A stretch of DNA of 64,000 bases from Candidatus Omnitrophota bacterium. GTDB taxonomy: Bacteria > Omnitrophota > Gorgyraeia > Gygaellales > Profunditerraquicolaceae. The notes under the pieces were generated by a model that was not told the DNA's origin, did not search any database, and saw only the letters and a list, made by a program, of their open reading frames with translations. The stretch spans positions 5,303 through 69,302 of the forward strand of contig JBASUY010000057.1 in NCBI GenBank assembly GCA_049275655.1. Direction: 5' to 3'. The position numbers were made by a program, and so were the translations under genes. How positions within the stretch are numbered: the stretch's first letter is position 1; every line of letters starts with the position of its first letter. Shown here piece by piece: positions 19,112 through 23,791 of this stretch.

Positions 19112-19149
19112 AAAAGGATTTTAACATTAATATGCGTTATTCTCAAGAA

Positions 19150-19196
19150 AAATAATAACTGAGGGACACCCGTAGCTTTAGCAGATTGGGTGTCCC
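19150..19196 (-). terminator. Rho-independent terminator directly after the EF-G fusion gene (also hairpin-competent on + strand)
   Basis: It is a 9-bp GC-rich inverted repeat (gggacaccc ... gggtgtccc at 19163..19196) with a 16-nt loop. On the minus strand it is followed by a T-rich run, and on the plus strand by tattcttttttttg. Confidence 0.6.
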
Positions 19197-22100
19197 TATT
19201 CTTTTTTTTGTTTTTCTTCAATGAGTTTTTGGGTAATCTCTTGCGGGACCTGGAGGTATTTAGAAAACTCCATAGAAGCATTTGCCCGGCCTGAGGAGAG
19301 AGAGCGGAATGCCGTAGCATAACCAAACATCTCTGCTAAAGGGACTTCTGCGGAGATTATCTTCTGCTTGCCTTTTGGCTCGGCATTTAAAATCTTTCCT
19401 CGGCGGGAACAGATATATCCGATACAAGCATTAGCGTATTCTTCTATAGTAGATACCTCTAAAGACATATACGGCTCCAATAAAATTGGCTTAGCCTTCA
19501 TAAATGCCTCTTTAAACCCAAAGATACCCGCCATCTTAAAGGCAAGCTCTGAAGAATCTACTTCATGAAAAGAACCGTCGTATAGCTCTACCTTGATATC
19601 TACAACCGGATACCCCACATACACCCCTTTTTGCATCGCTTCAATTACGCCTTTTTCTACCGCAGGAATAAACGAACGCGGTATTGCTCCTCCTTTTATA
19701 GAATCAATAAACTCAAAACCCTCTCCGGGCTTTGCCGGGATAACCCTTAAATTACAATGCCCGTATTGGCCGCGGCCTCCGGATTGTTTAATATATTTTC
19801 CCTCGCCTTCTGATTCTTCGATAATCGTCTCCCGGTAAGCTACTTTTGGTTGCCCAACTATTGCCTCTACCCCAAACTCTTCTTTTAACCTATCAACGAT
19901 AATCTCAAGATGCAGCTCTCCCATCCCGGTTAAAATAACCTCTTTGGTCTCATCATCCGTATTAACGATAAAAGTCGGGTCCTCCTCGGCAAGCCTTGAT
20001 AAACCCTTTCCTAACTTATCCTGATCTGACCTACTCTTTGGGGCAATGCTTAAAGAGACAACCGGAGTAGGAAATTGTATCGCCTCTAATAAAACCGGGC
20101 TCTCCGTATCACAAAGGGTATCCCCGGTAGTTGTATTGCCTAAACCGACTACCGCCACTATATCCCCAGCAAAGGCATACTCAATATTTTCCCTCTGATT
20201 CGCGTGCATCTGGACTATGCGCGCTATCCTCTCCTTTTTATTTTTGGTTGAGTTGAAAATATAAGTTCCCGCCTGAAGGCAGCCGGAATAAATACGAATA
20301 TAGACTAATTTCCCCATATGCGGGTCTGCCTGAACCTTAAAGGCAAGTCCGGCAAAAGGCTCTTCTATTTCAGGTTTACGCAAAAGCATATTATCAGGAT
20401 CCTTTAAATCATGCCCCTCAACTGCCGGGATATCTAAAGGAGAAGGTAGATAAGCTACTACCGCATCTAATAACTTCTGCAATCCTTTATTTTTAAATGC
20501 CGAGCCGCAAAGAAGGGGGACAACCTTGTTAGCTATTGTCCCTTTTCTTATCGCTGAGGACAACTCCTCTGCGCTAAGAGCAGATTCTCCTTCTTCTAAG
20601 TATCTCTTCATCAACCCCTCGTCAAATGCCGTTGCTTTCTCAACCATGATATTACGGTATTCCCTTGCCTTCTCTAAGTAATCTTGAGGGATATCTTCAA
20701 TACGGTATTCTTTACCTAAAGATTCATCTTCATAAATATATGCCTTCATTTCAAGTAAATCCACTACCCCTACAAAATCATCCTCTCCTTTTAATAAGGG
20801 TATCTCTATGGGAAGGGGATTCCCCCCTAAATCCTCCTCTATCCCTTTTAAGACCGCGTAAAAGTCCGCGCCTACCCTATCCATCTTATTAACAAACCCA
20901 ATCTTAGGAACATTATACTTATTTGATTGATGCCAGACTGTCTCTGATTGCGGTTCTACACCACCGACTGCGCAAAAAACAGCCACAGCTCCGTCTAAGA
21001 TACGTAAAGAGCGCTCTACCTCTACTGTAAAATCCACATGTCCAGGGGTATCAATTACATTGATACGGTAATCTTTCCAAAAACAGGTTGTCGCAGCAGA
21101 GGTAATCGTTATCCCCCGCTCTTGCTCCTGCTTCATCCAATCCATAGTCGCAGCCCCCTCGTGCACTTCCCCTATCTTATGGGATTTTCCGGTGTAGAAT
21201 AGTATCCGTTCCGTAGTTGTGGTCTTGCCGGCGTCAATATGCGCCATAATTCCTATATTGCGGGTTTTATCTAAAGAGTATTTTGGTTGGGGAATAAATT
21301 TTCCCTTATCATTAACCTCTGCTGATTGGCTTACAACTTCTTTCTCCTCTTCTTCTTTAAGCTTCTCCTCTTCAACCTCTGTTTCTTTAGGTTGCGCAGG
21401 CAAGGCTTCTTCGTTAATTTGCTCTACCGGTTCCTTTAGATCTTCTTTATCTACAATTGGCTCTATCTCATCTTCTTCTTTTAAAAGTTCGGATTCGTCT
21501 TTATCTTCGCCTTTTATAGGCACGCCTAAAGAAGAACCCTCCTGAGCCTGCTTCCTTAAACTAACTATCTCCTCGGCAAAACCCTTAAGGCGCTCTTCTT
21601 TCTCCTCTAATTCTTTCTCTAATGCAGTATATTCTTCATTAAGCTTGTTAAACTCTGCCTTAGGCACCCATTCACTTATCTTCTCTTTATTCTTAAACTC
21701 TTCTATGGTCTTTAAATAAACCTTTATATCCCGCTCATTTTTTTCTATCCTGTGCCTCTGTATCTCAATCTGCTCACCCTTCTCCTTGATAACCTTCTCT
21801 AACTCGCCTGCTTTTATTTTAAGCTCGTCTATCTCTTTTTTTAAGTTTACGTTTTTGGTAAACTCTTCCTGAGATTCTCTCTCTTTTTCTATAAACCGGT
21901 TCTTAAGTTCTAAATTTTCTGCTTTTACCTTATCAAGCATCCCCTCAGAAGTAGTAACCCACTCCTGCCTACGGCCTAACTCTTCTTTTAGTTCATTATA
22001 TTTACCTGTCGCCTCCTGAAAACTTGCTTTCTCAGTATTATATATGAGGCGTTGTTTTTCAAGCTCTGCTTCTAATTTTTTTAACTCTTCCTCAAGCCGG

Positions 22101-22258
22101 GATATCTTCTGGTCGCGAAAATCAGGCAAGGTAGGGTCGCTTATTTTCTTCCTATGCTTCTTTTCTTTTTGGAGAGAAGGCGAAGAAAAGACCGCATATA
22201 AAGCATAGATAACCATGCCTGCCGCAGGAACTAATACTATTAAAGTCAAATTGTTCAT
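19196..22258 (-). CDS. fusA: Elongation factor G with about 325-aa N-terminal extension (TM helix + coiled coil + acidic linker)
   Basis: It is a continuous 1020-aa ORF. Residues 1-25 form a TM helix ([21 protein letters not shown]). Residues 40-250 are heptad-rich E/K coiled coil. Residues 250-320 form an acidic E-rich linker. From [32 protein letters not shown] onward it is a full-length canonical EF-G with G1-G5 motifs and domains II-V. There is no in-frame ATG/GTG/TTG near the junction. Confidence 0.75.
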
Positions 22259-22261
22259 ATA

Positions 22262-23572
22262 TTATTTATCTGCCTTCTTTATCTTCTGCATCCGCTCTTT
22301 TATCTTTAACTCATACCCTATGTCCGTAGGCTCGTAATAACGCACTCTTCGGCGTGTATATTTTTGTTTTACATAATGCCCTTTATAATCGTGGGCATAT
22401 TTATACCCTCTTCCGTGGCCAAGCCCTTCTTTGTCTAAGGTAGCGTCCTTTAAATAGTCCGGGACCTCCTGGACCTTATGGCTCTTAATGTCCTGCATTG
22501 CTTTATCAATAGCTAAATAGCTAGCATTGGATTTAGGGGCGCAAGAGAGATAGATTACCGCCTGCGCTAAAGGTATGCGCGCTTCAGGCATCCCGACAAA
22601 CTCTGATACCTGTAAAGCGGCATTCGCTAAAACTAAAGCTAAAGGGTCAGCATTGCCGACATCCTCCGCTGCTAAGATACAGATTCTACGCGCAATAAAC
22701 CTGGGGTCCTCCCCGGCATAAAGCATCTTCGCCATCCAGTAGAGCGCGGCATCAGGATCGCTTCCGCGCATAGATTTGATAAAAGCAGAAGCAGTATCAT
22801 AATGCCCGTCTTCGCCCTTATCATAGACAACCGGCTTTTTTTGGATAGACTCCACAGCAACTTCTAAATTAATATTTATACTTGCGTCTTGCCCTTTCGG
22901 GGTAGTAAGCACCGCTATCTCAAGGGCATTAAGCGCCCTGCGCGCATCCCCTTCACATATATGCGTTAAAAACTTAAGCGCTTCCTTATCTATTTTGATC
23001 TTTAACGCGCCAAACCCTAAAGATTTATCTTTTAAGGCGCGGGATAAAATTGCGGCGATATCTGAACTTTTAAGGCTTTTAAGCTCGCAGACAAGAGAGC
23101 GGGAGATTAGCGGGGGGATGATAGAAAAATACGGGTTGTATACCGTTGCCCCGATTAAGATAGGGTTTCCTCCCTCTACATCCGGGAGTAAAACATCTTG
23201 CTGTGCTTTATTAAAGCGGTGAATCTCATCTATAAAAAGTATCGTCTTTTTTCCAGTATTAGTATATTTTTGTTTAGCAGAGGATATTATTTTACGCAAC
23301 TCTTCTACATTGGAGATTGTAGCATTAATAGAAGTATAGTAGGCTTTTGTGGTATTTGCAATACACCAAGCTAAAGAAGTCTTGCCTACCCCAGGCGGGC
23401 CAAATAGGACAAGGGAATTTAATCGGTCAGATTCTATTGCCCGGCGCAAAAGCTTCCCCTTACCTATAATATCCTCTTGACCAATAAAATCATCTAAAGA
23501 AGCTGGCCGCATGCGGATTGCCAAGGGGAGATTTTTAAGCTCTTCCATTTTTTCTTTAGGGAATAAATCCAT
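22262..23572 (-). CDS. rarA: Replication-associated recombination protein A (AAA+ ATPase RarA/MgsA)
   Basis: It has a Walker A motif (LFGPPGVGKTSLA), a Walker B motif (ILFIDEIHRFNK) and a MgsA C-terminal domain. The track ORF extends to 23701. The conserved N-terminus begins MDLFPKEK at about 23572. Confidence 0.85.
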   Translation of the reverse strand: MDLFPKEKMEELKNLPLAIRMRPASLDDFIGQEDIIGKGKLLRRAIESDRLNSLVLFGPPGVGKTSLAWCIANTTKAYYTSINATISNVEELRKIISSAKQKYTNTGKKTILFIDEIHRFNKAQQDVLLPDVEGGNPILIGATVYNPYFSIIPPLISRSLVCELKSLKSSDIAAILSRALKDKSLGFGALKIKIDKEALKFLTHICEGDARRALNALEIAVLTTPKGQDASININLEVAVESIQKKPVVYDKGEDGHYDTASAFIKSMRGSDPDAALYWMAKMLYAGEDPRFIARRICILAAEDVGNADPLALVLANAALQVSEFVGMPEARIPLAQAVIYLSCAPKSNASYLAIDKAMQDIKSHKVQEVPDYLKDATLDKEGLGHGRGYKYAHDYKGHYVKQKYTRRRVRYYEPTDIGYELKIKERMQKIKKADK

Positions 23573-23791
23573 AACATAAAAAAATCCCCGCTTTGTGCCG
23601 TTAGACTGACTCAATTGAACCGATCTTTTTAGGTGGGTGCCTTCTCTATGGCGCAAAAGCGTCGTAGAATACAGGCTCCCTTGATATTTTTGTTGGTTCA
23701 AAAATTATCAATTTTCCAACGCGCACAGCAGGGATTTTAAAAGAACTCGTTTTCTAAAAAAAGTATAGCACATATTTTCGCAAAGTCAACC

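Follow-up and report, generated by a model that had tools for sequence, protein, structure and literature searches.

A Predicted Membrane-Anchored Coiled-Coil Module Fused in Frame to Elongation Factor G across a Clade of Omnitrophota

Results

Within a 64,000-nt stretch of Candidatus Omnitrophota DNA (assembly GCA_049275655.1, contig JBASUY010000057.1, positions 5,303 to 69,302 of the forward strand; hereafter the window), we identified a gene in which a complete elongation factor G (EF-G) is joined in frame to an N-terminal extension comprising a predicted transmembrane (TM) helix, a long coiled coil, and an acidic linker, all within a single open reading frame (ORF) of 1020 amino acids (aa). 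Comparison of related sequences indicates that the fusion is a conserved, clade-wide architecture of Omnitrophota that has been hidden by gene annotation. We consider it probable that the product is an active, uncleaved EF-G tethered to the cytoplasmic face of the membrane. An earlier annotation of the window, made from its sequence alone (the first-pass annotation), gave the impression of a singular oddity; the fusion proved to be real but not unique.

The first-pass annotation had proposed searching related genomes by profile for the same extension. Using a profile of the TM helix and coiled coil only (hereafter the module), we scanned one genome for each GTDB species and obtained 120 matching genomes, the best 80 of which, nearly all labeled Omnitrophota, were analyzed. 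In 56 of these 80 species genomes, the module and an EF-G containing the AHIDAGKTT motif lie in one uninterrupted frame (one locus interrupted by a contig end, L081, was counted as fused). The 120 best matches of a protein database search are approximately 990-1048 aa long, with about 100% coverage and 62-80% identity, except for five in which the N-terminal extension is shortened, at least one of these owing its cut N-terminus to a very short contig. These matches come from NCBI, JGI, ENA, and Logan assemblies, some of them labeled Candidatus Omnitrophica, and the identical protein (P0001) is present on independently assembled Logan contigs. An exhaustive HMMER search with the module against 1.84 billion representative proteins gave 336 matches at E<0.001 and 167 at E<1e-10, including contig-truncated fusions and distant standalone relatives of about 225 aa.

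The surrounding gene order is also conserved, reading trkA-trkA-trkH-x-pheS-pheT-rarA-[gene]-DUF5981-nifU-5-FTHF cyclo-ligase-rny, with the gene described here in brackets. A module directly follows rarA in nearly all of 83 related loci, and on long contigs (0.5-1.2 Mb) the conserved locus is preceded by thrS-infC-rpmI-rplT. The fusion is also found in unrelated neighborhoods (L085, L093, L094, and L095) and with very divergent modules (P0212, P0242, and P0253).

All five EF-G Pfam domains (GTP_EFTU, EF-G_D2/GTP_EFTU_D2, EFG_III, EFG_IV, and EFG_C) score above their cutoffs at aa ~327-1017, and the TIGR00484 EF-G equivalog model gives 1036.2 bits against a cutoff of 659.4, with profile positions 5-690 of 691 covered, in agreement with the full-length, in-frame EF-G first reported. 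The best solved-structure match is T. thermophilus EF-G (PDB 1dar; 890 bits over 1dar residues 7-689), and the EF-G-2 homologue 1wdt gives 404 bits against the fused EF-G part. Because the alignment starts at T. thermophilus EF-G residue 7, the fusion junction falls at the normal EF-G beginning, again as first described. The P-loop, the other GTPase motifs, and the domain-IV H.VDSS motif are invariant in 30 homologues and align with those of T. thermophilus EF-G; P325, immediately ahead of the EF-G fold, is invariant as well. No loss-of-function substitutions in the GTPase or domain-IV motifs were seen across the clade. Median identity across the clade is 76% for the fused EF-G, 73% for RarA, 71% for PheS, 79% for NifU, 81% for RNase Y, and 48% for the module. 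By this measure, the fused EF-G evolves about as slowly as the neighboring housekeeping genes, and its sequence is that of a complete, constrained EF-G with intact motifs. The earlier suggestion of a ribosome-rescue or tetracycline-protection-like paralogue finds no sequence support, as the protein scores as a canonical EF-G and lies far below the cutoffs of the tet_protect (375.5 vs. 775), EF-G2 (NF009377; 512 vs. 890), and RF3 (prfC; 265 vs. 473) models, with the LepA and BipA models likewise far below theirs.

The extension (aa 1-326) matches no curated family in Pfam or NCBIfam. An AlphaFold2 (AF2) model of the module, built on an alignment of 20 homologues, has a mean predicted local distance difference test (pLDDT) score of 84.7, with helices above 90. 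It consists of a helix at residues 3-24, disorder at 25-46, an uninterrupted helix at 47-195, a break at 196-199, and a helix at 200-239. Together with hydropathy, the 3.5-residue periodicity, and linker composition described below, these helices bear out the anatomy of TM helix, coiled coil, and acidic linker given in the first-pass annotation. The TM window has a mean Kyte-Doolittle value of 2.34 (median 2.5 among 52 homologues), and Y18 and A19 of the anchor are nearly invariant. There is no lysine or arginine (K/R) ahead of the TM segment in the window protein and there are six in the 20 residues after it; among the 52 homologues, the medians are 0 ahead of the segment vs. 5 in the next 20 aa. 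By the positive-inside rule, this asymmetry predicts an N-out/C-in anchor, with the coiled coil and the rest of the protein in the cytoplasm. The K/R-rich stretch that follows (aa 25-46) is poorly conserved, and its juxtamembrane residues 28-44 have a pLDDT below 50.

Conserved hydrophobic residues of the long helix show a periodicity peak at exactly 3.5 residues, with spacings of mainly 3, 4, and 7, that none of 2000 shuffles reached, which argues for a continuous left-handed coiled coil of about 22 nm (149 x 0.15). The second helix also shows heptad periodicity (reached by 0 of 2000 shuffles) and has the highest conservation of any block in the module (mean 0.79). Across 20 module sequences of 42-71% identity, 23 positions are invariant, many of them polar, including E93, W100, H169, S195, W197, K200, N204, and N207. 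Conserved blocks within the coiled coil read RRxEWV..SEEML.KVK.ENL.LKNKF..KEKE.Q.EF.KNVN and EQIEIQKH.IEK, and at the kink between the two helices S195, W197, V198, and K200 never vary and E196 and P199 reach at least 90% conservation. Searched against Pfam, the same 20 sequences gave no EzrA, DivIC, or FtsB match and only sub-threshold matches to generic coiled-coil families (Phage_scaffold, ATG16, GAS, and others). These conservation patterns indicate that aa 1-240 form an autonomous, sequence-specific family rather than a generic heptad stretch, and the window protein displays its hallmarks: the TM helix, the ~150-aa heptad helix, the S-E-W-V-P-K kink, and the (E/D)FN(K/Q)LN(E/D)EY helix.

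The linker between module and EF-G is 60-124 aa long in 52 fusions and is rich in glutamate (25%), proline (14%), and lysine (12%), with a median net charge of -12.5. In the window protein it spans about 84-86 aa and is modeled by AF2 as coil with a pLDDT of 25-30. Column conservation is 0.32, and no conserved motif was found along it.

The remaining 24 species of the 80 have, in the same slot between rarA and the DUF5981-family gene, a gene of 248-412 aa whose product ends after the TM helix, the coiled coil, and an acidic tail; no EF-G-like sequence is present within the ~20-kb locus (L031, L035, L036, L040-L045, L048-L051, L053, L054, L056, L059, L061, L063, L065, L068-L070, and L073). The possibility that residues 1-325 belong to a separate gene, which the first-pass annotation had named as a ground for abandoning the fusion, is thus a reality in these relatives and does not apply to the window gene. 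The standalone modules keep 96% of the 23 invariant positions, equal to the fused ones. We built neighbor-joining trees of the module from about 190 columns, rooted at the midpoint and then with the distant ~225-aa relatives, which served only as an outgroup, as homology at that distance may be inflated by coiled-coil composition. In both trees, 21 standalone genes fall in one clade nested among fused lineages, L040/L042 are nested separately, and L069 is one further case. Judging from these trees, the fusion likely arose once, close to the base of a large Omnitrophota clade, and the EF-G moiety was secondarily deleted in some lineages. The stalk module would then predate the fusion as an autonomous membrane protein with a conserved surface of its own, to which EF-G was joined a single time. 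Retention of the polar surface without EF-G points to a partner-binding function of the stalk itself, and this surface probably binds a partner.

The distant ~225-aa relatives at L090 (2983-3660), L091 (6810-7499), and L092 (2304-2993) lie directly after a TPR protein gene. They have a TM helix, a coiled coil, and a WV(A/S)KSEYEKLE motif, adjoin histidine-kinase, Hpt, and response-regulator genes, and have no EF-G in this gene context.

The fusion appears to have escaped notice through start-site annotation. A search with the EF-G part only of a relative returned many NCBI proteins of ~695-716 aa named elongation factor G. In all seven such NCBI contigs inspected, the annotated start is an ATA, ATC, ATT, CTG, or GTG codon inside a continuous fused ORF, and the 0.9-1.1 kb upstream, left unannotated, encodes the full TM/coiled-coil module. 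Loci with this start-site truncation are L084-L089, L093, and L094 (e.g., JAQUMA010000002.1, JAQTTO010000009.1, and JAPLLV010000006.1). The long, fused form is what JGI, ENA, and Logan gene calls show. The short NCBI forms reflect starts chosen by homology and provide no evidence for initiation at an internal site, and with 7/7 checked being start-site truncations, we rejected these Ca. Omnitrophica entries as truly unfused EF-G. No in-frame ATG, GTG, or TTG occurs within 30 codons upstream of RNIG in 31 of the 52 fusions, the window included, consistent with the initial observation that such codons are missing close upstream of the junction; the other 21 have candidate internal starts at scattered positions. 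A conserved internal start was rejected on these grounds.

Two kinds of exception were seen among the gene calls. At L084 (6861-8000; JAQURX010000003.1), the TM-encoding 5' end is called separately (109 aa) and the frame that runs on into EF-G is not open before 7011, probably through a frameshift in the 5' part that reflects either sequencing error or genuine decay. Two proteins of 711 aa (P0351 and P0352, from JGI/ENA and thus non-NCBI calls) are fused-lineage EF-Gs without the module; these could be true fissions or frameshifts.

The coordinates of the fused gene and its parts are given in Table 1. The first-pass annotation placed the gene 4 nt downstream of a co-oriented rarA; the orientation is correct, but the spacer is 3 nt, and this arrangement of rarA stop and fused-gene ATG resembles translational coupling. 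The claim that the gene ends at its own intrinsic terminator is well supported, with the hairpin and its U-run folding at -22.8 kcal/mol (z = -4.8; 0 of 200 shuffles fold as well). A simple terminator scan passed over this hairpin, whose loop exceeds the scan's loop limit. The gene also lies outside the usual rpsL-rpsG-fusA-tuf context, as first stated: no second EF-G, tuf, rpsL, or rpsG is present within the window, and the fused gene instead comes after pheS-pheT-rarA. The usual position is typical of EF-G rather than defining.

Table 1. Coordinates of the fused gene, its encoded segments, and flanking signals in the window.
Feature	Coordinates	Strand	Description or basis
Whole fused ORF	19196..22258	-	1020 aa + stop codon, ATG start
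rarA TAA (22262-22264), 3-nt spacer (TAT), fused-gene ATG (22256-22258)	22256..22264	-	Read from sequence
N-terminal TM anchor, aa 3-24, predicted N-out/C-in	22187..22252	-	AF2 helix, hydropathy
Basic disordered juxtamembrane segment, aa 25-46	22121..22186	-	Low pLDDT, K/R-rich
Continuous 149-residue heptad coiled coil (predicted), aa 47-195	21674..22120	-	AF2 helix, periodicity
Helix break at E-W-V-P, aa 196-199	21662..21673	-	Non-helical in both AF2 models
Second conserved helix, aa 200-240	21539..21661	-	AF2, heptad periodicity
Hypervariable acidic, proline-rich disordered linker, aa 241-324	21287..21538	-	Composition, conservation, AF2
Complete EF-G, aa 325-1020	19196..21286	-	Pfam, TIGR00484, structure match
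EF-G G domain with G' insert	20441-21268	-	Pfam
EF-G domain II	20108-20359	-	Pfam
EF-G domain III	19853-20074	-	Pfam
EF-G domain IV	19490-19849	-	Pfam
EF-G domain V	19226-19483	-	Pfam
Intrinsic-terminator-like hairpin, 10-bp GC-rich stem overlapping stop codon, then U-rich tail	19144..19197	-	Folding

Several observations concern the genes on either side. The mechanically called rarA ORF (22262-23701, minus strand) begins at a TTG, but the true start probably lies some 42 codons further downstream (MDLFPKEKMEEL...), and the extra N-terminal stretch of this ORF is probably not translated. A promoter-like element, TTGAGA-17-TAAAAT with an extended -10 TG, lies at 19118-19146 on the minus strand, between the fused-gene terminator and the start of the DUF5981-family gene (19111), suggesting that this downstream gene is a separate transcription unit. 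Very large genes are found two genes downstream of fused fusA at L086 (11014-18094, >2692 aa), L089 (10914-18091, >3492 aa), and L087 (10919-14680, 1253 aa); they carry Metallophos and Methyltransf_28 domains, which fits reports of giant Omnitrophota proteins. On a 1.19-Mb nanopore contig (L001, 3218-3659), infC is split into IF3_N (78 aa) and IF3_C (73 aa) and thrS is shortened, suggesting indel errors in that assembly; the fused fusA on this contig is intact.

Discussion

The arrangement of the fused protein suggests how a tethered EF-G might operate. The N-terminal reverse signal-anchor would insert into the membrane with only 2-6 residues outside, and the basic patch behind it would fix the N-out/C-in orientation. 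The heptad helix may oligomerize, probably as a parallel dimer or trimer, into a ~22-nm stalk ending in the EWVP kink and a distal helix of about 40 residues and 6 nm. Beyond this, the polyanionic, proline-rich linker of 60-124 aa would serve as a leash, for which we estimate a contour length of about 30 nm and a random-coil end-to-end distance of about 6-10 nm. The EF-G head retains all the GTPase and domain-IV elements that translocation requires, and a pool of such heads, probably at least two on each stalk, would be kept near the membrane. Cell diameters of about 0.2 um prevail among Omnitrophota, whose genomes are reduced (PMC10066038). By our own arithmetic, a reach of 30-50 nm would take in ~66-88% of a sphere of 100-nm radius, so in cells of this size tethering need not starve ribosomes of EF-G. 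Tethering would also raise the concentration of EF-G at roughly the level that a ribosome docked on the membrane would occupy. The position of the gene after thrS-infC-rpmI-rplT-pheST-rarA hints at a role in translation, through guilt by association.

Several points weigh against an active, uncleaved, membrane-tethered EF-G. Its topology, membrane insertion, oligomeric state, and reach are predictions, as are an uncleaved product and translocation at the membrane. The full-length AF2 model of the fusion, with a mean pLDDT of 54, is too poor to use and says nothing on contacts between module and EF-G. The standalone module persists in 24/80 species with 96% of its invariant positions, so the function of the module does not need a covalently attached EF-G, and cleavage close to the junction would yield precisely such a module with an acidic tail. 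Moreover, the 24 standalone-module genomes must encode EF-G elsewhere, and among the matches listed no unfused EF-G reached 76% identity to the fused sister group of the standalone clade, suggesting a second fusA lineage. Finally, several chromosomes with the order S12-S7-EF-G-EF-Tu-S10-L3 have been reported from a set of 176 complete Omnitrophota genomes (preprint 10.64898/2026.06.07.730766), although the preprint gives neither lineages nor copy numbers for these canonical operons, and no fusA copy numbers were found in its supplement.

The last two of these points bear most directly on an alternative that shares the proposed architecture and differs only on the role of the protein. The genome may also carry a canonical soluble EF-G, for example in an rpsL-rpsG-fusA-tuf operon, with the tethered copy performing a specialized membrane-proximal task. 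Such a copy might feed EF-G to ribosomes docked at the translocon, help to recycle or split ribosomes at the membrane, or keep the factor in store, and would not carry out bulk elongation. We give this accessory role a little less than an even chance. Near-canonical EF-G duplicates with divided labor are known, such as EF-G1A and EF-G1B of P. aeruginosa, and related structures are among the PDB matches of the fused EF-G. A nested subclade has deleted the EF-G moiety of this very gene, and another fusA lineage must therefore have coexisted with the fusion in that ancestor; the identity limit and the reported S12-S7-EF-G-EF-Tu operons fit such a lineage. The other-context fusions of the P0145/L085 type were considered as the EF-G of the standalone-module genomes; this is unsupported, with only three clusters and differing assemblies. 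On the other side, the fused EF-G scores as an equivalog and is about as slowly evolving as its housekeeping neighbors, every EF-G of this lineage that was checked is fused, and Omnitrophota genomes are reduced. No second EF-G, S7, S12, or EF-Tu was found in 1.48 Mb over 95 related loci (~20 kb per genome), and a viral/mobile contig scan yielded no Omnitrophota str operon. We lean slightly toward the fused protein being a major working EF-G rather than a degenerate paralogue; that it is the only EF-G in these genomes is possible but doubtful.

Alternatively, the gene might encode a polyprotein or have a dual product, an explanation that we regard as unlikely. The fusion would serve only to ensure co-expression, with EF-G freed by proteolysis of the linker or by low-level near-cognate internal initiation; the released EF-G would be a normal soluble factor, and a membrane protein with an acidic tail would stay behind. 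The standalone versions, with an acidic tail of 10-170 aa after the module, resemble the remnant expected from such cleavage and clearly have a function, and the disordered linker should be accessible to proteases. An invariant proline stands just ahead of the EF-G fold, and the NCBI pipeline could set starts at ATA, ATT, ATC, CTG, or GTG codons near the junction. Those starts, however, come from homology-guided start picking, and the linker, with its conservation of 0.32, offers no conserved motif. Nor is there a positionally conserved start, with 31/52 fusions devoid of a canonical one in the 30 codons and the corresponding codon of the window gene being TAC. A free EF-G would also not require that more than 50 species be kept in frame over a hypervariable linker of variable length.

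An artefactual origin of the fusion (two unrelated genes brought together by a chimeric assembly, by a frameshift or sequencing error, or in a decaying pseudogene) is exceedingly improbable, and we rejected it even though L084 looks frameshifted in its 5' part, L059 has an N-gap, and P0351 and P0352 were called at 711 aa, since the same in-frame junction recurs in the genomes of 56 species and in over 100 protein clusters whose source assemblies are independent (SPAdes, MEGAHIT, and nanopore; four repositories), the identical protein lies on independent Logan contigs, and both halves are under purifying selection.

EF-G is usually treated as a freely diffusing soluble factor. An in-frame fusion kept across dozens of nanobacterial species of an uncultured phylum suggests that membrane restriction of EF-G is at least tolerated and probably advantageous, raising questions about the spatial organization of translation in very small cells and the weight of factor diffusion there. 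The fusion also acts as a Rosetta stone, tying an uncharacterized family of membrane coiled-coil proteins, which stand alone in many Omnitrophota, to the translation apparatus. The extension is invisible in the NCBI records examined, and comparisons of translational GTPases built on such records would miss the architecture. Should the fused protein prove to be the sole EF-G, all translocation in these ~0.2-um cells would depend on an EF-G that is anchored in the membrane and probably multimeric. Translation would then have to be organized within ~30-50 nm of the membrane, the stalk surface would dock ribosomes or a partner, and this would represent a previously unknown spatial organization of bacterial protein synthesis.

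Comparison with Known Systems

No description of a membrane-anchored or TM-extended EF-G, or of EF-G in Omnitrophota, was found in the searchable literature, which agrees with the statement in the first-pass annotation that no membrane-tethered GTPase of the EF-G family is known to have been described. In our own comparison, FtsY is similar in being a membrane-bound, translation-associated GTPase with an N-terminal element and a charged, poorly conserved spacer (PMC4602035, PMC2928010). The two proteins are not homologous: FtsY has an NG domain of the signal recognition particle (SRP) type and no long coiled coil, and the fused protein has no SRP54 or SRP54_N Pfam match. YqjD, ElaB, and YgaM tether the translation machinery to the inner membrane; each is a small protein that crosses this membrane once and has a helical region in the cytoplasm (bioRxiv 10.1101/2024.08.16.608256). 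Unlike the fused protein, they are C-tail-anchored, bind and inactivate ribosomes, and carry no factor, and they have no sequence relation to the module.

The coiled coil was initially likened to those of FtsB, DivIC, and EzrA; its heptad character stands, but a family relationship does not. The arrangement predicted for the module, one TM helix at the N-terminus and behind it a long coiled coil in the cytoplasm, is also that of EzrA; the likeness is one of predicted topology only, given the lack of a Pfam match in the 20 module sequences. The coiled coils of FtsB and DivIC, which likewise gave no Pfam match, are periplasmic, opposite to the predicted cytoplasmic location of the module's. Among translational GTPases, EF-G2, Tet(M)/Tet(O), RF3, LepA, and BipA share the superfamily and in part the domain architecture; the fused protein falls below the cutoffs of all of these, and no TM or coiled-coil extension on any of them was found in the searchable literature.

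An engineered L9-EF-G N-terminal chimera is present in ribosome-related PDB entries (4wpo, 4wqf, and others). This artificial construct, soluble and with a short linker, was made as a means of trapping EF-G in crystals. By analogy, it suggests that the EF-G N-terminus tolerates cargo in a way compatible with ribosome binding. Canonical EF-G itself (fusA, TIGR00484, PDB 1dar/4v5f) corresponds to the ~695 C-terminal aa of the fused protein in its five domains and all motifs, and the fused protein departs from it in the 325-aa TM/coiled-coil/linker extension and in its position outside the str operon.

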